From the UHGV virus genome UHGV-0119633: a DNA stretch of 28,006 bases; one strand, written 5' to 3'. This stretch comes from a virus. The notes beneath the pieces are model-generated. The model worked only from the letters and a program-made list of their open reading frames with translations, did not search any database and was not told the origin of the DNA. Position numbers and translations under genes: made by a program. The first letter of the stretch is position 1; each line of letters opens with the position of its first letter. Of the stretch, positions 346-21,917 are shown one piece after another.

Positions 346-379
346 TCTTTCTATAATAGGGCGTGTAATTTTCGCGAGC
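346..379 (-). promoter_or_regulatory. conserved intergenic motif, copy C (candidate phage promoter)
   Basis: Minus-strand CTCGCGAAAATTACACGCCCTATTATAGAAAG; lies between terminator and next RBS. Confidence 0.35.
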
Positions 380-405
380 CGACTTATCTTATATCAAGAT
401 TCGTA

Positions 406-444
406 GACAAAAAGAAGAGGCCGGGAATCAATCCCGAAACCTCC
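406..444 (-). terminator. rho-independent terminator
   Basis: Minus RNA: GAGG..CGGGA-UUGAU-UCCCG..CCUC hairpin followed by UUCUUUUUGU; just after stop of 453-836. Confidence 0.5.
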
Positions 445-452
445 TCATTCTG

Positions 453-836
453 TTAAACTTCTTCGTTTACTCCGATAGATACTACTCCTCCGATCAACTG
501 ATCTGGCTTCCAATCGTAAGCATCACATAATTCTTTTCCAAAGTTACCGAGTTCTGATAATGGAACTCCGTCTGTCCAAATATCAAACCATTTATCTGGA
601 TTGTGACTCGATACTTCTGTTACCCCTTTCTGTAATAAAGTTTCTGGTACTTCCAGTTTCTTTAGTTTTGGATCAGGAATACTCGGAAGTTTATCCCAGT
701 CAAAATCCTCAAATTTAGGTTTCTTTTTGGTTACAACGAATATAACTCCACCAGCTATCACTAGCCCGGTTCCAATAAGAATTTCCTTCTTGTGTTCCTT
801 TACAAATATTTTTGCTTTCTCAAGTTTTTCTTTCAT
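453..836 (-). CDS. membrane-anchored protein (N-terminal TM helix), paralog family KEK..KAK..KEHK
   Basis: ORF track 127 aa; RBS AAAGGAGAA 7 nt upstream of ATG; hydrophobic segment ILIGTGLVIAGGVIFVV; N-terminus similar to ORF 15181-15537. Confidence 0.6.
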   Translation of the reverse strand: MKEKLEKAKIFVKEHKKEILIGTGLVIAGGVIFVVTKKKPKFEDFDWDKLPSIPDPKLKKLEVPETLLQKGVTEVSSHNPDKWFDIWTDGVPLSELGNFGKELCDAYDWKPDQLIGGVVSIGVNEEV

Positions 837-873
837 AGTTTTGTTCTCCTTTCGACTTAAACAATTTTGTTTA

Positions 874-903
874 TTTGCATAATAGGAGTTGTTTATTTAG
901 CGT
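874..903 (-). promoter_or_regulatory. conserved intergenic motif, copy A (variant CGCT)
   Basis: Minus-strand ACGCTAAATAAACAACTCCTATTATGCAAA; immediately after terminator 904-938 and before RBS of 453-836. Confidence 0.3.
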
Positions 904-938
904 AAAAAAAAGGAAAGCCCAAGTCGTTTTGACCTGGG
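904..938 (-). terminator. rho-independent terminator
   Basis: Minus RNA: CCCAGGUC-AAAAC-GACUUGGG (8 bp, one G-U) then CUUUCCUUUUUUUU; after stop of 960-1457. Confidence 0.65.
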
Positions 939-959
939 TCTTTGCCTTTAGATAATAGT

Positions 960-1457
960 TTAAATGATATCTTTATGTTCACCTTTAAACCATAAAGAAC
1001 CATCCTCGAAACCTTCAATCAGTACACAAGTTCCGACAATATCGGTTTCGTGCTTATTATGTTCCACAACCAAACGATTACCTACTGTTTTCCATGACGA
1101 TAAAGCTCGTTCGTATTTTACTTTTGTATTATACGCAGACACATATCTCTTTTCGTAACCGTCCAATCTCTGTTTTAATTTCTTTACCTCATCACCATCC
1201 GGTTTCTCTTTTTCAGTTTGCTCTTTCAATCTGTCAAGAGTTTCCGTGATATTGTAAGGTAATTCCTTCAATCTGTTCTTGGAAGTACTCAAGTTTTTTG
1301 CTGCTTGCTTATGTAAATAATTCTCAAGCTTATCGATCTTGTCGATAATGTTCTTTGCGGTATCAATCACGATCCAATTAGAACCAAGTTTTGTACCTAA
1401 ATAAATAATTTCGTTTTCTTCCTGTTTCTTTAAAAAGTTGATAAATGTTGTTTTCAT
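960..1457 (-). CDS. hypothetical protein (165 aa)
   Basis: ORF track; RBS AAAGGGG upstream; followed by strong terminator. Confidence 0.6.
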   Translation of the reverse strand: MKTTFINFLKKQEENEIIYLGTKLGSNWIVIDTAKNIIDKIDKLENYLHKQAAKNLSTSKNRLKELPYNITETLDRLKEQTEKEKPDGDEVKKLKQRLDGYEKRYVSAYNTKVKYERALSSWKTVGNRLVVEHNKHETDIVGTCVLIEGFEDGSLWFKGEHKDII

Positions 1458-1486
1458 AAATATACCCCTTTCTTTAAATAAACTAT

Positions 1487-1518
1487 TTTTCTATAAAGGG
1501 AGATGTTTATTTAGCGAG
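1487..1518 (-). promoter_or_regulatory. conserved intergenic motif, copy B
   Basis: Minus-strand CTCGCTAAATAAACATCTCCCTTTATAGAAAA; ~30 nt upstream of start of 960-1457. Confidence 0.3.
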
Positions 1519-1944
1519 TTAATCCATGTTCACTAATTCGTGAATTGAACATTTCAATGCTCTCGCCATTTTTATCAGATTACGAGAATTCGGAGTGGCT
1601 AGACCGTTTGTGTATTTACTTATCGTAACCTGAGTGACACCTATCTTTTCAGCTAATCGATCTTGTGTCATAGCTACGTTTCTCATTTTCCGATTTAGAT
1701 TACGAGCAAATATCTTTCTCCATTCTTCTTCTGAAATGTCAATTGAATCTTCGTTGCCTGGATCATGAATCAGATAGGCTTGTCTATTAAGAAAATCATA
1801 AGCATACTTTTTACCGCCTTTGATCTTTACCGTGATCTCTAATTGTGCACTAGGATACCAATCTAACATTTCTTCCGCTAGATTAGGATAATCCTGACAA
1901 AATGCTTCATATACGGGTTTCCAATATTTTTTACCGTCATTCAT
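1519..1944 (-). CDS. XRE-family helix-turn-helix DNA-binding protein
   Basis: C-terminal RNVAMTQDRLAEKIGVTQVTISKYTNG...LIKMARALKCSIHEL is a classic Cro/C1-type HTH; start moved to internal ATG (1942-1944, MNDGKK) which has GGAGGGA RBS at 6 nt; track ORF extends to 1959. Confidence 0.7.
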   Translation of the reverse strand: MNDGKKYWKPVYEAFCQDYPNLAEEMLDWYPSAQLEITVKIKGGKKYAYDFLNRQAYLIHDPGNEDSIDISEEEWRKIFARNLNRKMRNVAMTQDRLAEKIGVTQVTISKYTNGLATPNSRNLIKMARALKCSIHELVNMD

Positions 1945-2060
1945 CTTAAGTCCCTCCATTTCTTAAAGATTGAATTATGTGCAGACCGAAATTCATTTTT
2001 ACCGTTTTTAGGGCCAAAATGACCGAAAATAGCCAATTTAGCCCCATTTTTGACGAAAAG

Positions 2061-2112
2061 TGCCGAATTATTAGCAGACCAAAAATAATTATTAGCAGAC
2101 CAAAATTCGGCA
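2061..2112. repeat. operator-like element: tandem 21-bp direct repeats flanked by 9-bp inverted repeat
   Basis: AATTATTAGCAGACCAAAA at 2066-2084 and 2087-2105 (period 21) bracketed by TGCCGAATT / AATTCGGCA; related GCAGACCGAAA and TGACCGAAAA copies at 1982-2035. Confidence 0.5.
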
Positions 2113-2116
2113 TATC

Positions 2117-2401
2117 TTACACATAATCGTCCTCATCTATGTCGTCTTCATACTCAAATTCATCATTATAATCGTCACTACCAGATCCATATAACTCTTT
2201 TAAAGCTTCTTGACGTTTGTTAATACTATCGATAGATGCTTTATATGTACTGATTCTGATAAACTCCGACATAGACATTCCGCTAAGTCTAGCTGCCCTC
2301 TCTATAGACGAATACTCCTCGTCATTGCATTTAGAGAAAATAGGTTTTCTTCTCGCTCCAAACTTCAACGGCCTCCCACGTTTCTTTTTAACTTCTTCCA
2401 T
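2117..2401 (-). CDS. small basic/AT-hook (KKRGRP) protein with RHH-like core and acidic tail
   Basis: ORF track 94 aa; RBS GAGGAGGA; motif GMSMSEFIRIS resembles ribbon-helix-helix family; paralogous to 3643-3813 and 6290-6493. Confidence 0.55.
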   Translation of the reverse strand: MEEVKKKRGRPLKFGARRKPIFSKCNDEEYSSIERAARLSGMSMSEFIRISTYKASIDSINKRQEALKELYGSGSDDYNDEFEYEDDIDEDDYV

Positions 2402-2407
2402 AAAATA

Positions 2408-2569
2408 TCAATCCTCCTCGCGAGCACTAGACGAACCATAACGATCTAATTCAATATCTACACCCTGCAAATTATCATAATTATGTATGGTAAGATCTGT
2501 CGATACCGTACCACCAAGCAATAAATCACCGATATCCTCAATACTAAGTTTTACAATAATTCTACTCAT
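2408..2569 (-). CDS. hypothetical small protein (53 aa, MSRIIVKLSIEDIGDLLGG...)
   Basis: Hand-translated; ATG 2567-2569 preceded by AAGGAGGA; stop TGA lies inside RBS of next gene. Confidence 0.4.
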   Translation of the reverse strand: MSRIIVKLSIEDIGDLLLGGTVSTDLTIHNYDNLQGVDIELDRYGSSSAREED

Positions 2570-2584
2570 AAATATCAATCCTCC

Positions 2585-2959
2585 TTACCACTCATCAAAC
2601 TCATGATAATCTTCGTCCTTGCAGCCACCCTTAGCCCACAACAACACCTGTATCAGACGGTCAATATCATACTCTTCAAATATCAAGAATTGTTTGTAAC
2701 CAAGGTAGTCATTAGTATCGCCATCATAAATCTCAAATGTCGCCTTAACAGATTCCTCATCGAACACGCTATCCAGATTCCACGGTTCCAACGGCATAAC
2801 CCCATTAAAAACCCAATCGAAAATATAAAACATAGGATTTAATTCTCTACCATGATCGACCTTAATCGCTAATCTCTCTTCCAAAACACACGGAGTATAC
2901 GGAGCAAATATAGTACCAGCTGGCATACGATTAAATGTTTTAAAATCTACTATCTTCAT
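2585..2959 (-). CDS. hypothetical protein (124 aa)
   Basis: ORF track; RBS AAGGAGGAA upstream. Confidence 0.6.
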   Translation of the reverse strand: MKIVDFKTFNRMPAGTIFAPYTPCVLEERLAIKVDHGRELNPMFYIFDWVFNGVMPLEPWNLDSVFDEESVKATFEIYDGDTNDYLGYKQFLIFEEYDIDRLIQVLLWAKGGCKDEDYHEFDEW

Positions 2960-2962
2960 AAT

Positions 2963-3346
2963 TTATTCCTCCTTATCTTTTTCACACCACATTCCAACAA
3001 GATCACTATACACTTCTAGCATTTTTACATCTGGTTTATCGTGGGTTTTATTATATTCATCAAAATATTCATTGAATGCACAAATACACTTCCAAATATA
3101 CATTTGTTTAGAATCATTTGTTTCATCCATTTCAGGTCTTTTTGCTTCCTCCTTGACATTCACTTTAGCCCAAGCGAAATAATGCTCCATATGCTCTCCA
3201 GGACCAAAGCCAACACAACGCGTGCTAACTGATAACGTAACATCATCGGGTTTTACTTTGTAACCGTTTCGACAACAATAGTCTGCTATAATCTCACAGA
3301 CATCATCTTCTGATAAATTAATAGTAATGTTCTTATTAATATTCAT
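2963..3346 (-). CDS. hypothetical protein (127 aa)
   Basis: ORF track; RBS AAGGAGGA overlapping stop of upstream gene. Confidence 0.6.
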   Translation of the reverse strand: MNINKNITINLSEDDVCEIIADYCCRNGYKVKPDDVTLSVSTRCVGFGPGEHMEHYFAWAKVNVKEEAKRPEMDETNDSKQMYIWKCICAFNEYFDEYNKTHDKPDVKMLEVYSDLVGMWCEKDKEE

Positions 3347-3360
3347 AACTCTAATCCTCC

Positions 3361-3621
3361 TTATCTCACATCAACGTTGCATCCAAAATTAATCAGATAA
3401 TCGGTAGTACAACCCAACACATGAGACATTCTAGCGATAACATCTATTCTAGGGGTACGTTTACATCTCATATAATTAGACATAGCCGACTCAGATATAC
3501 CGATTAATTTAGCCAATTCTTTTTGATTAATGCCGCATAAGTCCATACGGTAATTAAGCTTTTCAACGAAGCGTTTTCGCCATTCAATTTCACTAATAGA
3601 TTTTATAGGAGTCATTTCCAT
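3361..3621 (-). CDS. XRE-family helix-turn-helix DNA-binding protein
   Basis: INQKELAKLIGISESAMSNYMRCKRTPRIDVIARMSHVLGCTTDYL = Cro/C1-type HTH; RBS AAGGAGGA. Confidence 0.7.
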   Translation of the reverse strand: MEMTPIKSISEIEWRKRFVEKLNYRMDLCGINQKELAKLIGISESAMSNYMRCKRTPRIDVIARMSHVLGCTTDYLINFGCNVDVR

Positions 3622-3642
3622 AAAAATATCAATCCTCCTTAC

Positions 3643-3813
3643 TTACTTCTCTTCTTGGTACATTCTCTCTAAAGCAGTTCTAAATACATCAGCAGCACTC
3701 ATACCTGTTGACTTACGAACCTTCTCTAAAATATCTAATTCTTTCCTATTAACACGAACTAGATATCTTGTATCTCTAGGATCTGCTATCGGTTTTCTAC
3801 CTCTCTTCGCCAT
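3643..3813 (-). CDS. small basic/AT-hook RHH-like protein (56 aa, MAKRGRKPIADPRDTRYLVRVNRKELDILEKVRKSTGMSAADVFRTALERMYQEEK)
   Basis: Hand-translated; below ORF-track size cutoff; RBS AAGGGAGG 8 nt upstream; clear paralog of 6290-6493 (RGRP..DPR..Y..R.N..E...LE...K.TGM..ADVFR.ALE..Y). Confidence 0.55.
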   Translation of the reverse strand: MAKRGRKPIADPRDTRYLVRVNRKELDILEKVRKSTGMSAADVFRTALERMYQEEK

Positions 3814-3910
3814 ACATATCGCCTCCCTTCTATGACAGATACCATTAATACGAAAAACAAAAGAAGAGCCTCAACTAAATATCAATCTAGTCAAAGCTCT
3901 CCCACATCAA

Positions 3911-3982
3911 TTAATCTTTAAGATAACCAACTTTATATAAGAATCTTCCTACAACTGCCCAAAACTTCTGTCTGAGTGTCAT
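3911..3982 (-). CDS. possible 23-aa peptide (MTLRQKFWAVVGRFLYKVGYLKD)
   Basis: Strong RBS AAAGGAGGGA 6 nt upstream of ATG, ~30 nt downstream of promoter-like motif D; very short. Confidence 0.2.
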   Translation of the reverse strand: MTLRQKFWAVVGRFLYKVGYLKD

Positions 3983-4007
3983 ATAGATCCCTCCTTTCTA
4001 TTTGGTT

Positions 4008-4040
4008 TCTTTTCATAATAGGCGTTGTTAATATCACGAA
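4008..4040 (-). promoter_or_regulatory. conserved intergenic motif, copy D
   Basis: Minus-strand TTCGTGATATTAACAACGCCTATTATGAAAAG. Confidence 0.3.
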
Positions 4041-4063
4041 AGAAAAAGAGAGAAGAAGTATAT

Positions 4064-4205
4064 CTCAGCTACACGTTTCTCTGCATCCATTTAAAGACAC
4101 ATTCACTGGTCAGTTCCAGTCCCACTAATATACTTTGATGCTACACGTTTCTCCATACATAAGTATGTTCACTGGTCAGTTCCAGTCCCACATCAACTTT
4201 TATTC
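4064..4205. repeat. tandem ~70-bp direct repeat (2 copies) with internal hairpin
   Basis: Both copies share CTACACGTTTCTC and TTCACTGGTCAGTTCCAGTCCCAC (ACTGG/CCAGT stem); located between promoter-like motifs E and D. Confidence 0.55.
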
Positions 4206-4238
4206 TTCTCTCATAATATAAAATGTATTTTTCGCGAA
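4206..4238 (-). promoter_or_regulatory. conserved intergenic motif, copy E
   Basis: Minus-strand TTCGCGAAAAATACATTTTATATTATGAGAGA; directly after terminator 4237-4264. Confidence 0.35.
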
Positions 4239-4264
4239 TAAAAAGAAGAGGCTGTAAAAGCCCC
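4237..4264 (-). terminator. rho-independent terminator (short stem)
   Basis: GGGGC-UUUUACA-GCCUC then UUCUUUUUAUU on minus RNA; after stop of 4274-4657. Confidence 0.4.
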
Positions 4265-4273
4265 TTACTTGTT

Positions 4274-4657
4274 TTACTTAATTTTAATTGAGTCGTATTC
4301 CTCCTTAAATTTATTAAGCTTTTCCGTAAGTTCTTTTAACTCCTCTTCATATCTTTGTTTTACTATTAATGACACTTCGGAATTGTGTTTGTCACATCCT
4401 TCGATTTTAGAGACTCGATAAGCTATCTTTCTGTTCAGTGTTCCTATAGCTTCTTCAAGAGCACCTTCTTTTACCACATCTCTCACGAACTCTATAGTTT
4501 CAGTGTTATTCTTTATCTGTATATGATTCTTACATATAAAGAACGTTACCAATCCTATAGAAACACATGAGACACCGGCAATTATTTTGCCATTGTTGTC
4601 CATAACCACTTCTTTGAAAGACCTCTTTCCTTTCTCTTTAACATCGTGCTTCTTCAT
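4274..4657 (-). CDS. membrane-anchored coiled-coil protein (127 aa)
   Basis: ORF track; RBS AAGGAGG; hydrophobic segment IIAGVSCVSIGLVTFFI; followed by terminator. Confidence 0.6.
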   Translation of the reverse strand: MKKHDVKEKGKRSFKEVVMDNNGKIIAGVSCVSIGLVTFFICKNHIQIKNNTETIEFVRDVVKEGALEEAIGTLNRKIAYRVSKIEGCDKHNSEVSLIVKQRYEEELKELTEKLNKFKEEYDSIKIK

Positions 4658-4684
4658 ATCAAATACCTCCTTTAGAAATTAATA

Positions 4685-4717
4685 GTTTTTCATAAAGGGG
4701 TATGTAATTTACGCGAT
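4685..4717 (-). promoter_or_regulatory. conserved intergenic motif, copy F
   Basis: Minus-strand ATCGCGTAAATTACATACCCCTTTATGAAAAA; ~35 nt upstream of start of 4274-4657. Confidence 0.35.
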
Positions 4718-4734
4718 CACAAAAACCTCAAATA

Positions 4735-4995
4735 TCAATCCTCACTCTCTTTTTCTTCAAACATATCTGGTCTAGCGTATAAAGCTGCTTCAACCTCTTC
4801 TTCAGTCATTAGTGGTTTAATAGAACATCTGTCAAAATCCTGGTCATTAAATCTTACAACCATACCTTTTATCCCTTCATTCTGAGCGTGGATTGCTACA
4901 AGATCCATACAGGTTCTGAAAGTCCTCTTATCCACCGACAATCCAGCTTTTACTTCTACGTTAACTTCTCCGATAATATTCTTTTTACTTTCCAT
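4735..4995 (-). CDS. hypothetical protein (86 aa)
   Basis: ORF track; RBS AAGGAGGATTGAATT-ATG. Confidence 0.6.
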   Translation of the reverse strand: MESKKNIIGEVNVEVKAGLSVDKRTFRTCMDLVAIHAQNEGIKGMVVRFNDQDFDRCSIKPLMTEEEVEAALYARPDMFEEKESED

Positions 4996-4998
4996 AAT

Positions 4999-5289
4999 TC
5001 AATCCTCCTTCGTTTTATCTGCCATATCTCGAATAAGCACAATCTCATTGATATCATCCTCAATACGACGATAAATGCTATCAAATTTTTCCTGATAACG
5101 ATACATGTCTTGCAAATAGAAACTATGTATACGACTGTCTCGCTTACCGAAATTGACGATAACAGTTATGTATAAACCATCAAATTGGATATTAATTGGT
5201 ATATCATTCGCGCACCCAAGATCTCGTAACATCATTAATGCGGTAGTTACGTTAGTTATCATGTTGGTTTCATCGTTATAAAACTTCAT
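4999..5289 (-). CDS. hypothetical protein (96 aa)
   Basis: ORF track; stereotyped junction GGAGGATTGATATTTT-ATG. Confidence 0.6.
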   Translation of the reverse strand: MKFYNDETNMITNVTTALMMLRDLGCANDIPINIQFDGLYITVIVNFGKRDSRIHSFYLQDMYRYQEKFDSIYRRIEDDINEIVLIRDMADKTKED

Positions 5290-5295
5290 AAAATA

Positions 5296-5538
5296 TCAAT
5301 CCTCCAATGGCTTACCAGAACAATCCACCTCGATCATCTCTGGATTAGTATGTAACGTTTTCCCAAACTCCATTAATTCGGTAAGTAATTTGTTAAACTT
5401 AATAATAAATTCTTTAAGTGCCTCCTCACGAGTTTCGCCATACCCTTCGATAGTATAAATAGTATAGTCATCAAAATCTGCGCTTACGGTATGAGACTGC
5501 CACCTACCTTTTCCATCGTCATTATGTGTTAACTTCAT
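5296..5538 (-). CDS. hypothetical protein (80 aa)
   Basis: Start set to ATG 5536-5538 (MKLTHND) which carries GGAGGATTGAGTTT spacing; track ORF extends to 5556. Confidence 0.55.
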   Translation of the reverse strand: MKLTHNDDGKGRWQSHTVSADFDDYTIYTIEGYGETREEALKEFIIKFNKLLTELMEFGKTLHTNPEMIEVDCSGKPLED

Positions 5539-5552
5539 AAACTCAATCCTCC

Positions 5553-5834
5553 TCACAACATTTCATCAGCTAATTCCAAACAAATCTCTCTGGCCTGATC
5601 CCAAATATCAATCTCAAATGACACTCTCTTATATTCTTCCGAAAGAGATGTGTATCGGTCACTAAGCTCCATGTATTCACGGTAGCTTAATGATTCTTCA
5701 CCATCTTTTAGTTTTCTATCAATCTCAATCATCTCTCTCGATACAGCACATTTCTTTTTAATACACTCTACGTACTTATCGCTCATGGCCTGCCTTACTG
5801 CGGTGTTGTATTTGGTGATACTTTCTTTACTCAT
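5553..5834 (-). CDS. hypothetical protein (93 aa)
   Basis: ORF track; junction GGAGGATTGATATTTT-ATG. Confidence 0.6.
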   Translation of the reverse strand: MSKESITKYNTAVRQAMSDKYVECIKKKCAVSREMIEIDRKLKDGEESLSYREYMELSDRYTSLSEEYKRVSFEIDIWDQAREICLELADEML

Positions 5835-5840
5835 AAAATA

Positions 5841-6098
5841 TCAATCCTCCTTCTTGATGACGTCTATGCTAGCCTGAGCTAAAACAAAACCATCCATGTA
5901 ATCAGTATCGATATCAACTGTAATTTGTTGTTTCAACTGATCGGTAAATAACCCTGCGATATCTTCTGAAATACTGTCGGCCGGTGTGTCTGATCTGTAA
6001 ATTTTATTAACACGATACTTTATAATATCTTTTGTTGGTTCTTTAAGTCTTTTTAACTCTCTTTTTAACTTTTTATTCTTGATTTTAAGATTACTCAT
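5841..6098 (-). CDS. hypothetical protein (85 aa)
   Basis: ORF track; RBS GGAGGAATGATGTTTTT-ATG. Confidence 0.6.
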   Translation of the reverse strand: MSNLKIKNKKLKRELKRLKEPTKDIIKYRVNKIYRSDTPADSISEDIAGLFTDQLKQQITVDIDTDYMDGFVLAQASIDVIKKED

Positions 6099-6105
6099 AA
6101 AAACA

Positions 6106-6306
6106 TCATTCCTCCTTACTTCTTCTAACTTCCATTTCTAACCCAGATTGTATCCAACATCTTCTACATTTACTCTCATCATAGCCAGTAACACCACAGT
6201 TACAGCGCTCAGATGATTGTAAATCATAATCGTATGGACAATTAAACTCGACTAATAAATCGAGCATCGTTTCTTTCTGATTTTCATTATCAAATATCAT
6301 TTTCAT
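6106..6306 (-). CDS. small Cys-rich protein (66 aa)
   Basis: ORF track; RBS GAGGTG; CPYDYD...CNCG...CRRC cysteine pattern. Confidence 0.5.
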   Translation of the reverse strand: MKMIFDNENQKETMLDLLVEFNCPYDYDLQSSERCNCGVTGYDESKCRRCWIQSGLEMEVRRSKEE

Positions 6307-6493
6307 CGTTTAACACACCTCGCTCCGATTCCTTCTCATATAACTTCTCCAAAGCCACTCTAAAAACATCGGCCTGTCCCATACCAGTCATCTTGCAGCA
6401 ATCCTCTAGCATTTTATTTTCTTTATCATTTATACGTATCATGTAATGTTTCTTCCTCGGGTCTTTACTATAAGGTCTCCCTCGTCTGCCCAT
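6290..6493 (-). CDS. small basic/AT-hook RHH-like protein (paralog of 3643-3813)
   Basis: ORF track 67 aa; RBS GGAGGTGA 6 nt upstream; MGRRGRPYSKDPRKKHYMIRIN...TGMGQADVFRVALEKLY. Confidence 0.55.
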   Translation of the reverse strand: MGRRGRPYSKDPRKKHYMIRINDKENKMLEDCCKMTGMGQADVFRVALEKLYEKESERGVLNDENDI

Positions 6494-6532
6494 CGGTAAT
6501 CACCTCCAATCAAATATGCTTAACTTTAAATG

Positions 6533-6564
6533 CAAAAAGAGAAGACCCACATCCGAGCCTTCTC
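6533..6564 (-). terminator. possible terminator (long loop)
   Basis: GAGAAG/CUUCUC stem with 14-nt loop, then UUUUUG; after stop of 6573-6782. Confidence 0.3.
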
Positions 6565-6572
6565 CCATCAAT

Positions 6573-6782
6573 TTAACTATTATGTATTTTACCAGCGATA
6601 GCGTGTAGCAGATCCCTCTCATACTGTGTACGAAGCAGCACGATTTTCTCGATAGCTAAATCACGAACTGCCTTTCTAGTACCAGGACTTTCAACCAAAG
6701 ATTCGATAAATAAATCGTCTAAAATCTCTTCAAGGCCTTTCTTGAAATTCTCATTTCTTTCGGTAACACTGTAATCACTCAT
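6573..6782 (-). CDS. hypothetical protein (69 aa)
   Basis: ORF track; no good SD at normal spacing, so lower confidence. Confidence 0.45.
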   Translation of the reverse strand: MSDYSVTERNENFKKGLEEILDDLFIESLVESPGTRKAVRDLAIEKIVLLRTQYERDLLHAIAGKIHNS

Positions 6783-15663: not shown

Positions 15664-16110
15664 TTAAATATAGTCCAATATGTTTCCATCCACATTGAAG
15701 TCTAATAATGCCGTATTCTTATAACCATTGATAAAATCGAAATTACATTCATTCATTAAACCAAAATCTACGAAATTGTCTCCAATAGGATTCTCCTCGT
15801 CATAAACCCAGCCAACAACTGCTCCTGCTTTTGTTCTCGGAATGCCTAACGTATCGTAGACATCATTCAGAAATAAATGTCCTCTTGATCTCAGCAAAAC
15901 ATTACAATATTTCTGCTGATCTTTCAAAAAGTTCATATTATACTCTGGATCTTTAATCCACCCAATACAGCTATCATCGAAAAACCTAGCATATTGACTA
16001 AAGTTTTCGGTTTTGTCAACCCTGTTTCCTGGATACTCTTCTTCTGATTTCAGATTGAATAATTTCTTTAATTCCTCATCATCAATTTCAATAGTTACAT
16101 TAATCTTCAT
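15664..16110 (-). CDS. hypothetical protein (148 aa)
   Basis: Start moved to ATG 16108-16110 (MKINVT) with AGGAGAA RBS. Confidence 0.55.
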   Translation of the reverse strand: MKINVTIEIDDEELKKLFNLKSEEEYPGNRVDKTENFSQYARFFDDSCIGWIKDPEYNMNFLKDQQKYCNVLLRSRGHLFLNDVYDTLGIPRTKAGAVVGWVYDEENPIGDNFVDFGLMNECNFDFINGYKNTALLDFNVDGNILDYI

Positions 16111-16140
16111 AATTATTCTCCTTTCAAATATAAACATATT

Positions 16141-16172
16141 GTTTCATTAAAGGAGATGTTTACGACGCGAGT
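16141..16172 (-). promoter_or_regulatory. conserved intergenic motif, copy K (near-identical to J)
   Basis: Minus-strand CTCGCGTCGTAAACATCTCCTTTAATGAAAC; ~30 nt upstream of start of 15664-16110. Confidence 0.35.
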
Positions 16173-16288
16173 TATTTATGAAAGCCGATATCGCCGGCAA
16201 TAGCAAATAAACCAGCAGCTATAATTAATGCAGGTTCACTTGTCGCAAGATACAAAAATATTAATATTCCAGAAATTACCCATCCCAT
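16172..16288 (-). CDS. possible hydrophobic peptide (38 aa, MGWVISGILIFLYLATSEPALIIAAGLFAIAGDIGFHK)
   Basis: Hand-translated; overlaps helicase stop; weak RBS. Confidence 0.25.
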   Translation of the reverse strand: MGWVISGILIFLYLATSEPALIIAAGLFAIAGDIGFHK

Positions 16289-17562
16289 TTACACCACCGC
16301 CTTTCATTAAATTTTCGCTTTTCATGCAGAGCTCTGGATATTGCTAGGTCAATACCACTCCTACTTTTTAGATGATAGTAATATAAATCTATGAATGGAG
16401 AATTAAGTCTATCGATCCTACCCTTTGCCTGGAGTAATGTCTTGTATGAATATGTTTGCGAATAAAATACGATACAGTTTGTTTTAATGCAATTGAAACC
16501 CTCGGCTCCTGCTGAATAATTTACCAGATAAATCCACTTCTCGCTTTCTGGTATAGCATCATGCTGGTGTCCGTTATATTCTGCAATAACCACATCTTCT
16601 CCATAATATAGATTCTTCAAGATATCCAGTTCGTAGTCGAATGAATAGAACACAATCATTCTTGGATGTTGTTCAAATATCTCTAATAGTTTTATCTGGC
16701 GTGATTCATCTGAATTAACGATTCTACGTAGAACATAGCAAAGCCCAGAAGCTTGTTGGATAGGTTCTTGTTTAAAAGGATCAAAACGAGTTCTAATAGC
16801 TTGCTTGTATTTATGGATGTCGTAAGTAGCCGAAATATCAATGTCATGAGGTACCGTATGTCTCTCGAAATCCATATCAATAAGAATCCGATCTCTTAAA
16901 CGAATCAATCTCGTCTCATTACGATAACCTTCAACACTAGGATACTTTGTCCAACGAGAATATATAATGTGCTCTTGCCTGAATTCCGTTCTATTACGAA
17001 AGAATCCATTAGCCACAAATACCGTTTCGTAATCTGACCAATTATCACCTGGACTAGCTGATAGTATGATCCATTCGTTAAATTTAGCTATCTTTAAAAA
17101 AGCTTTACACCATGCGCCTTTACCAGTTAGCTTATCTTCGTCAAATATAAATACAGCATCTCGAACATCTGCATATTTCTTTATGCATTGCCAACTATCG
17201 ATAAATATTTTGTTCCCATATCTAGTCTTTTTAGTATCTGGATCAGGATATAAAAGAAACGGCATCAATTCTTCTTCCCATTCAAGATCATTTTTTTTCT
17301 TTGCTGTGCTGATAATGTATAAATCTGGTGGATTAGGTTTCATTGGTTTGTACTCTTTATTACCTATGTATCCTCCGTTTTTAGAGAAATACCAATACAA
17401 AGCAGTTCTAGATTTCCCAGAACCTGTGCCACCGTTAAGAATGCAACCGCTGAACATACGATCTATAGCCTGCTGTTGATGTGGATAGAGAAAATCCGTT
17501 TTGGTTTGAGTTTTGTTGTAAGAAATAGTATGTCGATCTTTATAGCTCACTTCCAAAATCAC
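16276..17562 (-). CDS. superfamily-2 helicase (DEAD/DEAH-like ATPase)
   Basis: Walker A GTGSGKS, Walker B FIFDEDK, motif III SASPG, motif VI QAKGRIDR; upstream YPHQQQAI; no in-frame ATG near RBS so start is GTG (17562) or TTG (17556). Confidence 0.75.
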   Translation of the reverse strand: MILEVSYKDRHTISYNKTQTKTDFLYPHQQQAIDRMFSGCILNGGTGSGKSRTALYWYFSKNGGYIGNKEYKPMKPNPPDLYIISTAKKKNDLEWEEELMPFLLYPDPDTKKTRYGNKIFIDSWQCIKKYADVRDAVFIFDEDKLTGKGAWCKAFLKIAKFNEWIILSASPGDNWSDYETVFVANGFFRNRTEFRQEHIIYSRWTKYPSVEGYRNETRLIRLRDRILIDMDFERHTVPHDIDISATYDIHKYKQAIRTRFDPFKQEPIQQASGLCYVLRRIVNSDESRQIKLLEIFEQHPRMIVFYSFDYELDILKNLYYGEDVVIAEYNGHQHDAIPESEKWIYLVNYSAGAEGFNCIKTNCIVFYSQTYSYKTLLQAKGRIDRLNSPFIDLYYYHLKSRSGIDLAISRALHEKRKFNERRWCKWDG

Positions 17563-17744
17563 TCATCCTCCTTACCACTACCGGTCAACTTCCTATACAA
17601 CTCCATGGCCTCTTCTCCCTGAAAAGCATTCAAAATATCGATAGTCTCGCCTTTCTTTTTCTTACCAACGACTAAAATAGCTGTATCAGGTCCGCCTTTC
17701 ATATCAAAATCAACTGATACTAAAATAGAATCTGTTATTCTCAT
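17559..17744 (-). CDS. hypothetical small protein (61 aa)
   Basis: ORF track; RBS GGAGGA 6 nt upstream; coupled to helicase by GTGA overlap. Confidence 0.55.
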   Translation of the reverse strand: MRITDSILVSVDFDMKGGPDTAILVVGKKKKGETIDILNAFQGEEAMELYRKLTGSGKEDE

Positions 17745-18004
17745 AATTCGTCCTCCAAATTTAATCTCGGAAAATGTTTATCTAATAGCTCCAAAAGTTT
17801 TTCTGCACATTCTGGACACATGTCTAGCCGTAAATGTTTGTGTCTATTATTTCTATCCTTGATAGTGAGCGATAACCAAGATTCATCATAAATAGGATCT
17901 AACGCAATTTTTTCGTCAATGACATGGTCAGCCTCAAACCGTATCTTACACATATCGCAAGTATGTTTGATTTTTTTAAATTTTCTTCCTAAATCTGTCG
18001 CCAT
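17741..18004 (-). CDS. zinc-ribbon protein (CDMC...CPEC), 87 aa
   Basis: ORF track; RBS GAAGGGAG. Confidence 0.55.
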   Translation of the reverse strand: MATDLGRKFKKIKHTCDMCKIRFEADHVIDEKIALDPIYDESWLSLTIKDRNNRHKHLRLDMCPECAEKLLELLDKHFPRLNLEDEL

Positions 18005-18076
18005 TTAAGTTACTCCCTTCTAAAATATAAACAAAAAGAAAGAGAGTCCAAATTAATGAACCCTCTCCTCCTGAAA

Positions 18077-18238
18077 CTATTCTTCAGTTTTGTTCTTCAC
18101 GTTATGTCTCGTTTTCGTCACAGATCTCACTGTCTTGCAAACGTATCGTCCGATGCTCTCAACCACTACTCCCATTGCGAACATACCCCACACTGGAATA
18201 TCAATTGTTTTGTCACCTTTCTTAATATGCATGTTCAT
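18077..18238 (-). CDS. hypothetical small protein (53 aa, MNMHIKKGDKTIDIPVWGMFAMGVVVESIG...)
   Basis: Hand-translated; RBS GAAAGGAGAAA 6 nt upstream. Confidence 0.4.
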   Translation of the reverse strand: MNMHIKKGDKTIDIPVWGMFAMGVVVESIGRYVCKTVRSVTKTRHNVKNKTEE

Positions 18239-18282
18239 AATCTGTTTCTCCTTTCATTGTTTGAATTTAACTTTTATGTATA

Positions 18283-18312
18283 GTTTCATAATAGCAAGTG
18301 CGAATATCGCGA
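18283..18312 (-). promoter_or_regulatory. conserved intergenic motif, copy M (variant)
   Basis: Minus-strand TTCGCGATATTCGCACTTGCTATTATGAAAC; upstream of 53-aa ORF 18077-18238. Confidence 0.3.
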
Positions 18313-18354
18313 ATTTTTATGAGCGTGTATTTGATATGTATTTTGCGCGAAATA

Positions 18355-18987
18355 TCAATATGGAATCTTCCACTTGCCTCCTACTTTCACAGCTCCTGGA
18401 TGCAACCCCTGTCTACACTGTTTCTGAATTGTAGCTTTTGTACAACCTAATTTTTCAGCGAGTTCTTCTGCGGTAAGCATGATTACTTTTCTTTCTTCTG
18501 TATTGTCCTTGTTAACCGCGATCGAAAGTTTTGGTATAGTTAAATTATTAAGTGCTTGTTTTAATTCATCCAAAGCCGATAATTCTTCCTCCTCTTTTTC
18601 TTCCGGTAACCATTTCTTAAATACTTCATAATAGTTACCCTTATTTCCAAGAGCCTTCTTAGCAATTGCCATAGCCAGACCTTTCTCCGGATCGTAAATA
18701 TCATCTTCTCCTGATTTTACGATAGTCTTAGTTCCATCTTCCCACAGAACTACAGTTACCGGATCATTGAAATATACTTTCTTAATTGTAATAGTGTTTT
18801 CTCTCCTCTCTGAACTTTCAACTCCAAACATTTTATTCAGAGCATGTTTAGCTAACATTTTCATTTCTTTATCAATATCCATAGCAAGTACCGGATTTAT
18901 TAAAGTATTAGACTCGTAATGACTCCATCCGACACACCCCCTACATGCATAGGTGTTTTTATTTTTACATCCATAACAACTCAACAT
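18355..18987 (-). CDS. DNA-binding protein: N-terminal Cys cluster plus C-terminal excisionase/MerR-like HTH (HTH_17-type)
   Basis: C-terminus IMLTAEELAEKLGCTKATIQKQCRQGLHPGAVKVGGKWKIP matches Xis-type HTH; N-terminus CYGC...CRGC. Confidence 0.6.
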   Translation of the reverse strand: MLSCYGCKNKNTYACRGCVGWSHYESNTLINPVLAMDIDKEMKMLAKHALNKMFGVESSERRENTITIKKVYFNDPVTVVLWEDGTKTIVKSGEDDIYDPEKGLAMAIAKKALGNKGNYYEVFKKWLPEEKEEEELSALDELKQALNNLTIPKLSIAVNKDNTEERKVIMLTAEELAEKLGCTKATIQKQCRQGLHPGAVKVGGKWKIPY

Positions 18988-19125
18988 AATTTTATTTTCC
19001 TTTCTTAAATATCAATCTTTTACATAATGAAGACCCTCCCAAACTACGAGAGAGCCAAGTTACTCAAACGGATTATCTACCTTTGGCATTGTAAATCCCA
19101 CTACGCATCACCTCACTTTGTTTTT

Positions 19126-19308
19126 TTATTCGTAAGCAGACATTTTTACAAAAGATTCGTCATGTTTGTTAAACTGTATGCTAGCATGACAATATGGTCC
19201 GTAAACTTCGATATATACATGTTTCGGATCAATACATTCATAATAGCTATTTTCGTATTTGACACCCCATTTATTTAACCATTCTTTCCATTGTTCTAGA
19301 TCTGTCAT
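19126..19308 (-). CDS. hypothetical small protein (60 aa)
   Basis: ORF track; modest RBS. Confidence 0.45.
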   Translation of the reverse strand: MTDLEQWKEWLNKWGVKYENSYYECIDPKHVYIEVYGPYCHASIQFNKHDESFVKMSAYE

Positions 19309-19343
19309 AATATTATTCTCACTTTCTAAATATCAACTCTAAC

Positions 19344-19877
19344 TTAAAACTCAAACGGAATTTGTTCTACATCCCCGCCCTGAACAGTAACGCTCTGCAT
19401 TAGCTGTCCAGTCTCTTCGTCGTAAAATAAATCATCCAAGAAATGATCAATGTCATCTTGAACGTCCTGGTCTGCCATTCTCATAACTTCATAGCCTTCA
19501 AGACCGATATGACGACGGAGTTTCTTCAAAACAGTAGCAGTCCATCTTCTGAATTTACGAGCTTCAAGTTTCTTACTAGAATATAAAGCTTCATATATAC
19601 CGATCTCATTTACCGCCAACATCCAACGGTATCTATTTTCCCCTTTTGATCTATCCACCTTTGAAAGGTGATCAGATGATTCGTTATACCTTAAAGGTAT
19701 ATCAGATACGTCTACTCTAACTCTCATCATCATATCCGGATCTAATCTCTGAGATACTTTGAATGTTTTAAGTTCCAAAGCATTACAAATATCTTTCAGG
19801 ATAGCCCACCATTCACCATCCTGCTCGATAAATCTAATATCATATCCCATCCAATTCTCTGTTCTCATTTCGCTCAT
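19344..19877 (-). CDS. Bro-N-like domain protein (anti-repressor-type N-terminal domain)
   Basis: MGYDIRFIEQDGEWWAILKDICNALEL resembles Bro-N/KilA-N pattern; start moved to ATG 19875-19877 with AAAGGAGAA RBS. Confidence 0.5.
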   Translation of the reverse strand: MSEMRTENWMGYDIRFIEQDGEWWAILKDICNALELKTFKVSQRLDPDMMMRVRVDVSDIPLRYNESSDHLSKVDRSKGENRYRWMLAVNEIGIYEALYSSKKLEARKFRRWTATVLKKLRRHIGLEGYEVMRMADQDVQDDIDHFLDDLFYDEETGQLMQSVTVQGGDVEQIPFEF

Positions 19878-19891
19878 ATTATTCTCCTTTC

Positions 19892-20029
19892 CTACCAAAA
19901 CTTCACGTTACGAATCTTTCCACAGATCTTACACCGACATCTAAATATGCCTACTTTAAAACCGCAGTAGTCGTAATAAATATCATGCGGTTTGTCTTCG
20001 AGTTTTTCCCATTCGTGAATATGAAACAT
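19892..20029 (-). CDS. small Cys-rich protein (45 aa, MFHIHEWEKLEDKPHDIYYDYCGFKVGIFRCRCKICGK...)
   Basis: Hand-translated; RBS AAAGGAGAGG 6 nt upstream. Confidence 0.4.
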   Translation of the reverse strand: MFHIHEWEKLEDKPHDIYYDYCGFKVGIFRCRCKICGKIRNVKFW

Positions 20030-20074
20030 ACTATACCTCTCCTTTCTTATCAAAAATCCCACACTGATAAAATT

Positions 20075-20103
20075 TTAGTTAAAATAAAAAAAAAGAGGCC
20101 AGA
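20075..20103 (-). terminator. U9 tract after vWA gene (weak hairpin)
   Basis: Run of nine T on minus strand immediately after stop; stem not convincing. Confidence 0.25.
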
Positions 20104-21672
20104 CTATTTAGCCAAGCCCCTTTCGTTTAGTGCATCCTCAACTGCGGAATATCGATCTGAGTTAAGTTGCTCTAATAAGCACTCTAGCGGATCGGTGTTA
20201 TTACTAAGCACCATATTGGTAATAATCGGACTAAATCCACTTACTAAAGCAACTCCTAGATCGTTCTCTTTTACTGGGATGGTTCCTGTTCTGCTACAAA
20301 TGTTCCAGAATATCAATCTAGGAAGTTTATAGCCGTACTGAGAGTAACGATCTGATATCGTATTAAACAGTGTTTTACTCGGTCTGATATTGCTCCATCT
20401 TGAACCTCCTTCGCAACTAGCACAGCTATCAAATTCCATATCTGATAAGATAAGTATGTTTTTAGGAATGTCGTTCTGTGACATGTTATTGTTGATTGCT
20501 GTTTTGAGAATAAGTTCAAATACAGCTTCGATGTTTGTGTTAGCCACCTCGTTGTATCTCCTGGCAATTTCGATCTTTTCTCTCAAAGATTCTCCGTTAC
20601 TAAGATCTACTAAACGAGGATTCATGCTGAATGTAATATATTTGTCTCTGAATTCACCAGAACTTCTTTCAGAAAAATATATTGCAAGAGCATTGGCTAC
20701 CTCTAAAGCTGTTACACTTGTTCCGCCGACAGGACAGTCCATACTACCCGATCCGTCCGCAACGCAAATTGTGTTACCGTCTCCGTTTACATAATCGGGA
20801 AGTGCTTTCCACAATTCTTCAAGTGTAATGTCATCTTTACCTTTGAGTTTATTCCCGTACCAAAATTCACCCCGATCAAAGTATTTATGTACAATATCAT
20901 GCGGGAATAGTACACCAGCATTGATTTTCGTCTCGCCTTTCTGCAAACTCGCTAAGTAACTACTTCTCCTTTCCTCATCGTTCTTCATAAACGCATTACC
21001 ATATATAATATTGGCTCTTGATGGAACCGCAGAATAATCAATCTTTGACCATTCTTTCTTACACATACTAACTTCCACAACTTTTAAATATGCACGAAGA
21101 TCCGAAAGCATTTTACGATAGGATTTCTCGTTAATAAATAACTTCTGAATCATAAGACGTGCTAGTCGTTTTGTCTCTTTAGACGAAGTGTTTGCAGACG
21201 GCATCCATTTAGCTAATAAAGAAATAGGCTCTCCTAGAGATCTCTTCCTTATATCACTTGTCAACTGTGTAGATACAATTGATACAACGTAGTCTGAAAC
21301 GTCAGTGTCTAATAAACACCATAAATCATCCCATCTACCGTATTCCGGAACCAACGGAATGATTGCCTTTGATATATCGGCATGTTTTTCGGATAGATAC
21401 TTAAGACAATATCTGAATAATCTTCTTTCTCCGAGACCTTCTCGTACATCTCTGGCATAGAACAACCACTTGATAGCAAGCTGTTTGTTTTCGTAGAATG
21501 TCTTTACAAACTTGTCTACGATTTCTCCCTCGTCCATATTTCGCATGGATGTTACTGAAAAGTTGATGTCAAGAAGTTCTTTACCAGTAGTACGGTAACC
21601 AACTGCTCCATTTTCAGTAAGGCTTGTGTTGAATTCATCATTGATTGTTTCTTTCAGATTGTTCATAAACAT
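20104..21672 (-). CDS. vWA-domain protein with MIDAS motif and TROVE/Ro60-like N-terminal region (DUF2828-like)
   Basis: 522 aa; DGSGSM (DxSxS MIDAS) followed by vWA-like layout; N-terminal GYRTTGKELLD and LAIKWLFYARDVREGLGERR resemble TROVE module; RBS AAAGGAGAAAAACT. Confidence 0.6.
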   Translation of the reverse strand: MFMNNLKETINDEFNTSLTENGAVGYRTTGKELLDINFSVTSMRNMDEGEIVDKFVKTFYENKQLAIKWLFYARDVREGLGERRLFRYCLKYLSEKHADISKAIIPLVPEYGRWDDLWCLLDTDVSDYVVSIVSTQLTSDIRKRSLGEPISLLAKWMPSANTSSKETKRLARLMIQKLFINEKSYRKMLSDLRAYLKVVEVSMCKKEWSKIDYSAVPSRANIIYGNAFMKNDEERRSSYLASLQKGETKINAGVLFPHDIVHKYFDRGEFWYGNKLKGKDDITLEELWKALPDYVNGDGNTICVADGSGSMDCPVGGTSVTALEVANALAIYFSERSSGEFRDKYITFSMNPRLVDLSNGESLREKIEIARRYNEVANTNIEAVFELILKTAINNNMSQNDIPKNILILSDMEFDSCASCEGGSRWSNIRPSKTLFNTISDRYSQYGYKLPRLIFWNICSRTGTIPVKENDLGVALVSGFSPIITNMVLSNNTDPLECLLEQLNSDRYSAVEDALNERGLAK

Positions 21673-21716
21673 AGTTTTTCTCCTTTCTTACGGTTTTTAA
21701 TCCCTTTGTTTTAAAT

Positions 21717-21870
21717 TTGCTGTTACCGCCTTAGGTCAAGATGCTTCATTCTTCTTAATTGCCAACATTAAAAATTGCTGTTAGCATCTTAAAAAAGAAA
21801 AGAGAGTAGCTGTTACAAGATACTATAATTCGCTCATCCAATTGTTTTAATTAGTTGCTGTTAGTATCTT
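21717..21870. repeat. four dispersed copies of TTGCTGTTA(G/C) in leader of vWA gene
   Basis: TTGCTGTTACC 21717, TTGCTGTTAGCATCTT 21775-21790, TAGCTGTTACAAGATACT 21806-21824, TTGCTGTTAGTATCTT 21855-21870. Confidence 0.5.
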
Positions 21871-21885
21871 TATTTAACTACTACT

Positions 21886-21917
21886 CTCTCTCATAATAGG
21901 TGTTGTAAATTTCGCGT
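21886..21917 (-). promoter_or_regulatory. conserved intergenic motif, copy L
   Basis: Minus-strand GACGCGAAATTTACAACACCTATTATGAGAGAG; heads the repeat-containing leader of the vWA gene. Confidence 0.35.

Follow-up and report, generated by a model that had tools for sequence, protein, structure and literature searches.

Which RNA polymerase reads the repeated intergenic element of UHGV-0119633, a virus contig of 28,006 nucleotides (hereafter, the window)? The original prediction, made from the letters of this DNA alone, had listed 13 copies of the element as candidate phage-specific promoters and had favoured an activator-dependent or phage-sigma reader. By comparing the element across related phages, we find that it is probably a promoter read directly by the phage's own single-chain two-barrel polymerase, an enzyme resembling QDE-1 and RNA-dependent RNA polymerases (RdRPs), whose gene lies beyond the window's coordinate 1. 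The window is an entire metagenomic contig (ENA ERZ1755778, NODE_478) with 35% G+C; all its plausible genes are on the minus strand, and 88% of it is coding and 12% non-coding.

The element lies between genes and points in their direction

Searching the window with the degenerate pattern CGCKAAANWWACANNNNCNWTTATR, with up to three mismatches allowed, returned 11 matches, all on the minus strand, where shuffled sequences are expected to give 0.23. A position weight matrix derived from those 11 sites recovered exactly the 13 originally predicted sites, which score 22-43 bits; nothing else exceeds 8 bits. To avoid circularity, a second matrix was built from the Arthrobacter phage Mudcat, the Faecalibacterium phage FP_oengus and the Lactococcus phage P092 alone; it found 13 of 13 window sites, again all on the minus strand (18.9-34.6 bits, in frames beginning at most 2 nt from the coordinates of the original prediction), against 0.19 matches at 16 bits or more on shuffled sequence. 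One weak extra site of this matrix, at 12049-12085 (14.7 bits), is within chance.

The stretch from the CGCG box to the presumed start is entirely non-coding in all 13 copies. A start codon follows 26-49 nt downstream of eight of them and about 78 nt downstream of another, while the remaining four are followed by a long leader, a non-coding RNA or a very short open reading frame (ORF) (Table 1). The gene strand has more hairpin-plus-T-run terminators than expected (26 against 7.6), and our scan placed one within 60 nt upstream of five copies; the region before the copy at 4014-4038 folds similarly. The pattern search, both matrices and the non-coding cores therefore bear out the claim of 13 minus-strand intergenic sites in gene orientation, and the 22-28 kb block of the window indeed holds no copy. 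That the copies usually sit just after a terminator was somewhat overstated: this applies to the five sites found by scan and the one found by folding, and the rest abut the preceding stop codon, as copy 3 does that of a helix-turn-helix (HTH) gene at 1519-1959. Judging from their sequence and position, all 13 sites are almost certainly promoters.

Copy 1 is nearly identical to a Mudcat site, TCGCGAAAATTACACGCCCTATAATAGAAGA, from which it differs by few bases. A partial extra copy, TTCGCGCAAAATACATATCAAATACACG, lies at about 18325-18355 on the minus strand, just upstream of copy 12, and has the CGCG and ACA boxes with no TTAT start region.

Conserved positions suggest a transcription start directly after TTAT

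Pooling the copies of this phage and of related ones gave 219 unique sites (212 for distances to the Shine-Dalgarno sequence), with the consensus CGCG-N5-wACA-N4-CT-n-TTAT-G/A, followed by a purine run. The CGCG box is conserved at 82-93%, A-C-A at 89%, 100% and 95%, C-T at 82% and 86%, and T-T-A-T at 98%, 81%, 99% and 99%; the base after TTAT is G in 88% of sites and otherwise A, and the next 5-6 positions are purines in at least 90%. In 41 of the 212 sites the Shine-Dalgarno sequence begins at most 5 nt after this first purine, with the ATG 16-18 nt after it, and these close-spaced sites share the regular form TTATGAAAGGAG-N7-9-ATG (seen in the contig L011, described below).

The purine run, the Shine-Dalgarno spacing and three predicted transcripts of the window, whose closing stem begins exactly at this purine and which end in a U-run, together indicate that transcription most likely starts at the purine directly after TTAT. 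The element would then be contiguous from about -24 to +6, like T7-type promoters. With this purine as +1, CGCG would occupy roughly -24 to -21 and be followed by an A-rich stretch (-20 to -16), ACA (-14 to -12), C-T (-7/-6) and TTAT (-4 to -1), then by the initiating G (sometimes A) and 5-6 purines. A duplex template carrying the motif would contain CGCGAAAATTACACGCCCTATTATAGAAAG.

The element lacks the geometry of sigma-70 promoters. No TTGACA-like -35 box was found at 16-18 bp; the hexamer 17 bp upstream of TATTAT reads nnnnnC, just before CGCG. TAnnnT in its best register occurs in 36% of the 219 sites, and other registers give 0-4%. Consensus scans revealed no enrichment of sigma-70-like sites (57 against 76.9 expected, and 32 against 36.3 expected). 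A role for TATTAT as a -10 element is unlikely because a start 6-8 nt downstream would remove the Shine-Dalgarno sequence from the close-spaced transcripts. The original prediction was therefore correct in noting that a TTGACA-like box is missing at 17 bp, and position, orientation and the comparative evidence below give good support to its view that the promoter is phage-specific and not of the host sigma-A kind. Its description of TATTAT/TTTATA as -10-like is probably wrong, as the equivalent of A(-11) occurs in 36% of sites, compared with 81-99% for TTAT and its purine. Its choice of an activator-dependent or phage-sigma reader is probably wrong as well: a two-barrel polymerase of the phage is likelier, since the motif co-occurs with its gene across phyla.

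A putative two-barrel polymerase is encoded beyond the window

Three further contigs belong to the same phage: L005, which is 100% identical to window 1-10545 and extends 5.6 kb further, and the 96.6-kb IMG/VR contig L012 together with L009 (99.93% identity to window 10109-27590). The extension of L005 contains an ORF of 1056 aa (L005:12932-16102, 2.1-5.3 kb beyond window coordinate 1) in an operon ordered tRNA-Met (11896-11969), small endonuclease, exonuclease, 1056-aa ORF and 86-aa ORF. Along its entire length the 1056-aa protein matches phrog_4291, annotated 'RNA-dependent RNA polymerase' (E = 0). The loop SGADFDGD, which corresponds to the catalytic DxDGD loop of two-barrel enzymes, is invariant in five divergent members and 30 further sequences; one HTH domain is N-terminal, and a second, C-terminal one scores as sigma-70 region 4. 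Pfam RdRP matched three of the five divergent members weakly, and sequence searches against the PDB returned the HTH domains only.

An AlphaFold2 model computed from 30 sequences (pLDDT 72.8) has a predicted fold with two double-psi beta-barrels (DPBBs), for which Foldseek retrieved QDE-1 (E = 5.7e-6) and RDR2. From this model and these matches we infer that the 1056-aa protein is an active DNA-dependent RNA polymerase. Neither the roughly 44 kb of this phage that we covered nor the genome annotations of Mudcat, P092, FP_oengus and the Streptomyces phage Scap1 revealed a T7-like polymerase; the two-barrel protein is the sole polymerase candidate found. Its family comprises more than 8000 protein clusters and occurs on more than 500 IMG/VR contigs, with close relatives of this phage's polymerase in Blautia genomes. 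The usual annotation is 'HTH DNA-binding protein' or, misleadingly, 'RNA-dependent RNA polymerase'. A 2021 preprint (Erill-lab) described a 'putative polymerase' from HHpred and noted the two HTH domains, and says nothing on promoters.

This phage's polymerase operon is preceded by two degenerate copies of the motif (CACG..TTCTTG..CCCTTTTATGAGAGA). They lie in a unit of about 130 bp that is tandemly duplicated at L005:11660-11870 (about 0.8-1.0 kb beyond window coordinate 1), one copy in each unit; the start region CACGAAAAT of one copy doubles as the upstream box of the next, and the tRNA-Met follows the second.

Some further features of the polymerase and its neighbourhood deserve mention. 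An N-terminal peptide, L-HYG-pR-SGRYP-GSG---Q (residues ~53-76), is invariant in all aligned members and lies in a part of the model of low confidence; it might serve as a signal for packaging, ejection or processing. Homologues of the polymerase are called 'structural protein' in some JGI records. Directly after the polymerase gene there is always an ORF of about 80-90 aa (phrog_4303: L005:16105-16365, Mudcat gp95, FP_oengus gp56, P092 gp76, Scap1 gp56), a candidate cofactor.

The motif travels with the polymerase gene across two phyla

Full-length homologues of the polymerase, with 36-42% identity, are present in Arthrobacter, Gordonia, Streptomyces, Rhodococcus, Lactococcus and Faecalibacterium phages, at the right genome end and after the same endonuclease-exonuclease pair (the polymerase is gp94 in Mudcat and gp75 in P092), and the motif travels with the gene across phages of Actinobacteria and Firmicutes. 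Mudcat has seven copies (tCGCGtAAATTACAcGGGCTATAATGaGA), FP_oengus 14 (gACGCGAAAAATaCAgccTCCTTTATGGAAG), P092 ten (TTTTACATACCCTATAATGAAAG, with no CGCG box) and Scap1 three variant copies (CGCAAnnTTTACAnnnnnTATAGTGAGAC); MT835495, whose polymerase is 79% identical, has two copies of the same motif just upstream of its polymerase operon. When the complete genomes of Mudcat, P092 and FP_oengus were scanned with the pooled matrix, all copies fell on the gene strand within the small-gene cluster, and in Mudcat and FP_oengus also before the polymerase operon, a pattern that the three Scap1 variants follow; none of the three complete genomes has a copy before structural or replication genes.

We extended the comparison to 80 metagenomic IMG/VR loci encoding the polymerase (1.19 Mb), with a cut-off of 20 bits. 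These gave 183 matches on the gene strand and one on the other. A match was present in 73 of the 80 loci, and in the seven without one the sequence that precedes the polymerase gene is shorter than 1 kb. A typical copy lies about 0.94 kb before the polymerase start, and across the 26 loci with sequence on both sides of the gene, 55 matches were upstream and two downstream. Control gut-phage loci (1.29 Mb, made up of loci rather than whole genomes) had no match at 20 bits or more.

In L005 a motif copy precedes the tRNA-Met. The phages differ widely in composition, from Mudcat, with 45% G+C in a 63% G+C Arthrobacter host, to Scap1 with 61%, and their hosts span 33-63% G+C and two phyla. A signal for host polymerases is not expected to stay constant over such a range, which points to a conserved phage enzyme as reader. 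A further contig, L011, carries the motif in nine terminator-promoter-gene cassettes; it has the layout of the family, with tail and endolysin genes followed by the motif cluster, and one gene in common with MT835495.

The restriction of the motif in relatives to the small-gene cluster and the polymerase operon makes temporal or promoter classes plausible. The copy nearest upstream of the 22-28 kb block (L012:3555) precedes a 71-aa gene followed by a terminator-like hairpin. As the block itself holds no copy and the gene of the nearest one ends in such a hairpin, the block may be transcribed by read-through or by another polymerase.

Direct reading by the phage enzyme and its alternatives

In the mechanism that we propose, the two HTH domains of the polymerase would contact CGCG and ACA in double-stranded form, the AT-rich TTAT would melt, and synthesis would begin at the neighbouring purine. 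Hairpin-plus-U-run terminators would insulate many short units, whose products are small proteins, one or more tRNAs and probably small RNAs. We infer that the polymerase, and not a host polymerase with a phage factor, reads the motif, and likewise the exact start base and the roles of the HTH domains.

Much of the same evidence could be accommodated by host sigma-A holoenzyme using TATTAT/TATAAT as a -10 element, with a phage DNA-binding protein that occupies CGCG and ACA and so substitutes for the -35 contact. This is essentially the idea of the original prediction, and the factor could be the large HTH protein as activator, or else a different conserved HTH protein or a sigma. In its favour, this phage, Mudcat and P092 all carry a -10-like hexamer, and of the two HTH domains in the large protein one is sigma region 4-like. 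Several other HTH proteins are encoded in the window, bacterial-type terminators bound the units, and the bootstrapping of the polymerase operon would be solved. We nevertheless regard such a composite as unlikely, because A(-11) is found in so few of the 219 sites (36%), with FP_oengus and most polymerase-operon copies reading CTTTATG or TTTTATG, and because in roughly 19% of sites at most 5 nt separate TTAT from the beginning of the Shine-Dalgarno sequence, too little for transcription to start 6-8 nt after a -10 element. The purine-only stretch and the stems starting after TTAT instead point to initiation there, and one 30-bp element is not expected to serve actinobacterial and firmicute polymerases alike. 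To an ordinary host promoter, used by a housekeeping or alternative sigma with no phage factor, we give hardly any credence. A -35 box is lacking, the motif recurs in phages that infect Arthrobacter, Streptomyces, Lactococcus and Faecalibacterium, and the 1.29 Mb of other gut-phage DNA yielded no match of 20 bits or more. The geometry of the motif is not known to match any sigma consensus. A common host could explain why L011 has the same motif while sharing almost no detectable genes with this phage in the available sequence, but L011 shows the family layout and the gene in common with MT835495.

Two readings dispense with a promoter altogether. Many asymmetric copies in short intergenic gaps, in a single orientation relative to transcription, recall the 'stoperators' of cluster A mycobacteriophages, which are bound by a phage repressor or regulator; in several copies TTCGCGAA is palindromic, and some relatives are temperate (FP_oengus has an integrase, and there are Blautia prophages). 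Such an operator is very improbable, as copies stand directly after terminators, where nothing remains to stop, and also precede tRNA and non-coding units; the element is conserved across phyla, unlike fast-evolving immunity specificities, the annotation of Mudcat shows no integrase, and the conserved purine start region would have no role. The motif is often near ribosome-binding sites, and a second element, GGATTGATATTT, does lie between Shine-Dalgarno sequence and ATG, so that a translation or processing signal at the RNA level could be imagined, comparable to the start-associated sequences of cluster K mycobacteriophages or to an RNase site. This we find the least credible of all, since the distance to the start codon varies from 26 to more than 200 nt, some copies precede no ORF, or a tRNA, Rfam gave no match, and copies lie downstream of terminators.

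Several observations weigh against direct reading by the two-barrel polymerase. The family is known from sequence and predicted fold only, the 2021 preprint itself says putative, and the structure model is of moderate confidence, with low global TM-scores (0.28-0.31). Many records call the large protein an HTH protein, and it could be a DNA-binding regulator of the host polymerase. The motif precedes the polymerase operon itself in nearly every genome (in degenerate form here), which creates a bootstrapping problem: because the operon sits behind the motif, the first polymerase molecules must come from elsewhere, possibly by delivery in the virion, read-through from a host promoter or weak host use of the -10-like part. 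A good -10 hexamer (TATAAT/TATTAT) is present in the motif of Mudcat, P092 and this phage. In Actinobacteria a -10 element alone can suffice, and host sigma-A could use some copies, especially there. The units are bounded by bacterial-type intrinsic terminators; P092 is without the CGCG box; and L011 carries the motif on a contig that is linked to the family by its layout and one shared gene only.

Transcription units of the window and their predicted RNAs

The copies, the terminator-like hairpins near them and the predicted RNA units are collected in Table 1.

Table 1 Copies of the element, nearby terminator-like hairpins and predicted RNA units in the window
Feature	Position	Strand	Description
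Copy 1	352-376	-	CGCGAAAATTACACGCCCTATTATA; predicted start base 352; found by pattern and matrices; followed by a short hairpin with U-run, the ribosome-binding site of a small ORF, then HNH genes
Copy 2	878-902	-	CGCT variant; ATG of 127-aa gene 453-836 is 42 nt downstream
Copy 3	1492-1516	-	CGCT variant; 165-aa gene 960-1457 starts 35 nt downstream
Copy 4	4014-4038	-	CGTG variant; very short ORF about 33 nt downstream, then terminator 3862-3903
Copy 5	4212-4236	-	Precedes non-coding unit of about 170 nt, 4040-4212
Copy 6	4691-4715	-	127-aa gene 4274-4657 starts 34 nt downstream
Copy 7	11559-11583	-	41-aa ORF 11408-11533 starts 26 nt downstream
Copy 8	12340-12364	-	91-aa gene 12035-12310 starts 30 nt downstream
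Copy 9	15122-15146	-	Best score; then structured unit of about 180 nt ending at terminator 14951-14990
Copy 10	15573-15597	-	TTTAATG variant; 118-aa gene 15181-15537 starts 36 nt downstream; found by matrices
Copy 11	16145-16169	-	TTTAATG variant; DUF6353 gene 15664-16110 starts 35 nt downstream; found by matrices
Copy 12	18287-18311	-	GCA replaces ACA; 53-aa gene 18077-18238 starts 49 nt downstream
Copy 13	21892-21916	-	DUF2828/TROVE-like gene 20104-21672 starts 220 nt downstream
Terminator-like hairpin	421-437	-	Upstream of copy 1; scan
Terminator-like hairpin	918-938	-	Immediately upstream of copy 2; scan
Terminator-like hairpin	4246-4266	-	Immediately upstream of copy 5; scan
Terminator-like hairpin	15156-15175	-	Immediately upstream of copy 9; scan
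Terminator-like hairpin	15632-15657	-	Upstream of copy 10; scan
Non-coding unit	4040-4212	-	Two-fold internal repeat GUGGGACUGGAACUGACCAGUGAA; fold z = -2.4
Structured transcript	14945-15122	-	Downstream of copy 9; strong terminator hairpin at end; z = -3.5
Predicted hairpin RNA, ~100 nt	21791-21892	-	5' arm GAGAGAGAGUAGUAG at start base; UUUUCUUUUUU after 3' arm

Two of the predicted units, 4040-4212 and 14945-15122, are structured, end in U-runs and contain no convincing ORF, and on the strength of their predicted folds they are candidate phage small RNAs. In the former, the 5' sequence GAGAGAAGA pairs with UCUUCUCUC directly before the U-run. The hairpin at 21791-21892 might represent either a small RNA or, within the leader of the DUF2828 gene, an attenuator; the whole 220-nt leader (21673-21892) has z = -4.87, with 0 of 200 shuffles folding as well. 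This gene encodes a TROVE-like (Ro60-like) protein, and its leader contains three repeats of (U)AACAGCAAnUUnAAAAC in loop regions, with no match in Rfam. The leader could serve as RNA partner or autoregulatory site for the RNA-binding protein. In P092 (L081), the copies at 13606-13641 and 13994-14029 are followed 9 nt later by GACTTTAGCTCAGAGGTAGAGCG, which resembles the 5' portion of a tRNA; ARAGORN reports none at these sites.

The second over-represented element, GGATTGATATTT, has 16 matches in the window against 0.9 expected, all on the gene strand (for example at 2403-2414, 2570-2581, 3624-3635, 4730-4741, 5291-5302, 5836-5847 and 22672-22683). It usually spans the gap between Shine-Dalgarno sequence and ATG (AGGAGGATTGATATTTTATG) and contains the TGA codon that ends the preceding gene, and the junction GGAG-TGATATTT-ATG is also found in the distant family members L093, L127, L086 and FP_oengus; the copies at 328-339, 3877-3888 and 4730-4741 are not beside a start codon. 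Possibly it marks a conserved junction at which cassettes of small genes are coupled or recombine.

Genome context

A megablast of the window against known phages gave zero matches, so no close relative was found among deposited phages, and distant blastn against the same phages recovered scattered gene fragments only. Rfam and tRNA scans of the window gave no match. The sole difference between L005 and the window is an extra repeat block at window 1972-2108, where short tandem repeats (ggtctgctaataatt...) lie within or after a 55-aa ORF. Accessory genes of the window encode an anaerobic ribonucleotide reductase activase-like radical SAM protein (7273-7764), a MazG-like protein (6838-7173), a LemA-family protein (10608-11204) and a Bro-N anti-repressor-like protein (19344-19898). 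The phage genome, represented by the IMG/VR record IMGVR_UViG_3300045988_045688, is at least 96 kb, compared with 43-60 kb typical for cultured members of the polymerase-bearing group.

A different scaffold, L001, has a 126-aa gene in common with the upstream end of the window (protein identical, DNA about 90%), which points either to an exchange between unrelated gut phages or to chimerism at a contig end. L001 also encodes a 181-aa sigma-70-like protein (17344-17889), NAD salvage genes and a T4-type RNA ligase, and has zero copies of the motif. A phage sigma factor as reader of the motif was considered and rejected: this gene is the only sigma-like one found, it lies on the other scaffold, which lacks the motif, and it has no homologue in the other loci.

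What is new and why it matters

Phage promoters read by phage polymerases are known from T7, N4, phiKZ/AR9, crAss-like phages and P23-45. A full-text literature search, which covers subscription content incompletely, found no published description of the motif or of a promoter for this polymerase family; Forrest 2017, the Erill-lab preprint, the surveys of Arthrobacter and Rhodococcus phages and the P23-45 paper do not mention the element. While the kind of system is familiar, the sequence evidence suggests that this instance represents a new class of promoter, belonging to a polymerase family that is still uncharacterised. On balance we favour the view that it provides the first promoter consensus for this two-barrel family, that duplex DNA would be recognised through fused HTH domains acting as a built-in sigma-like module, that promoter and enzyme form a pair kept nearly unchanged from actinobacterial to firmicute phages, and that the system transcribes its own gene. 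If it does, virion delivery or a self-amplifying switch would follow.

A sharply defined 30-bp element paired with the gene across two phyla makes the 'putative polymerase' experimentally testable. If correct, our reading would reveal how promoters can be found by a minimal two-barrel polymerase that has no separate sigma factor, a point relevant to the question posed by YonO, and would account for gene expression in siphophages from gut, mouth, dairy and soil, a very common group. It would also allow transcription units and small RNAs in such genomes to be annotated better and offer a compact orthogonal transcription system for Gram-positive hosts.

Comparison with known systems

Among known repeats, the stoperators and start-associated sequences of mycobacteriophages are similarly multi-copy, oriented and intergenic in siphophage genomes. 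Those sequences measure 13-17 bp, are specific to a cluster or immunity group and lie within operons or beside start codons, whereas the motif described here is about 30 bp long, follows terminators and is conserved across host phyla. The middle promoters of T4 (MotA box plus sigma-70 -10, with AsiA) also have an upstream box that replaces the -35 at fixed spacing; they differ in that the -10-like hexamer is not conserved here (36% TAnnnT) and the start apparently follows immediately. No MotA or AsiA homologue appeared among the proteins scanned against Pfam and PHROGs, in which no search was aimed at them.

The enzymes closest in predicted fold, QDE-1 and RDR, are eukaryotic silencing enzymes that use no duplex promoters and have 10-12% identity to the 1056-aa protein. 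YonO of the Bacillus prophage SPbeta is likewise a single-polypeptide polymerase of a Firmicutes phage related to multisubunit enzymes; it transcribes one long late operon, in contrast to the many short units here, and its promoter sequence was explicitly left undetermined (PMC5467207). An hhalign comparison of the family profile with YonO gave a probability of 0.1%, and the motif is absent from the yonO-yonK region. A YonO-like assignment was consequently rejected for want of profile similarity, the family forming a separate branch of two-barrel enzymes.

The two-barrel polymerases of Thermus phages P23-45 and P74-26 comprise the non-virion enzymes gp64/gp62 and the tape-measure-fused virion enzyme gp96; their start sites were mapped experimentally and their structures solved, and in P23-45 the same kind of co-occurrence argument preceded the biochemistry (PMC10770324). 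They have no detectable sequence similarity to the family described here and no fused HTH, and their motifs, which combine an AT-rich with a GC-rich element, are unlike ours (PMC10770324).

The nearest likeness is to promoters of the T7/T3/SP6 class, which are contiguous over 25-30 bp up to the start and AT-rich from -4 to -1 (TATA there, TTAT here), with an initiating G, purine-rich first bases and many co-oriented copies; for the motif, too, the proposed reader is a phage-encoded enzyme. The Scap1 variant TATAGTGAGA resembles the T7 TATAGGGAGA and SP6 TATAGAAGAG sequences. Unlike that class, the candidate enzyme is a two-barrel protein with an ADFDGD loop rather than a Pol-A-type polymerase, the element reaches a CGCG box at about -24, and the likely readers are fused HTH domains rather than a specificity loop. 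Taken together, these comparisons suggest a promoter that would work like those of the T7 type but outside that family.

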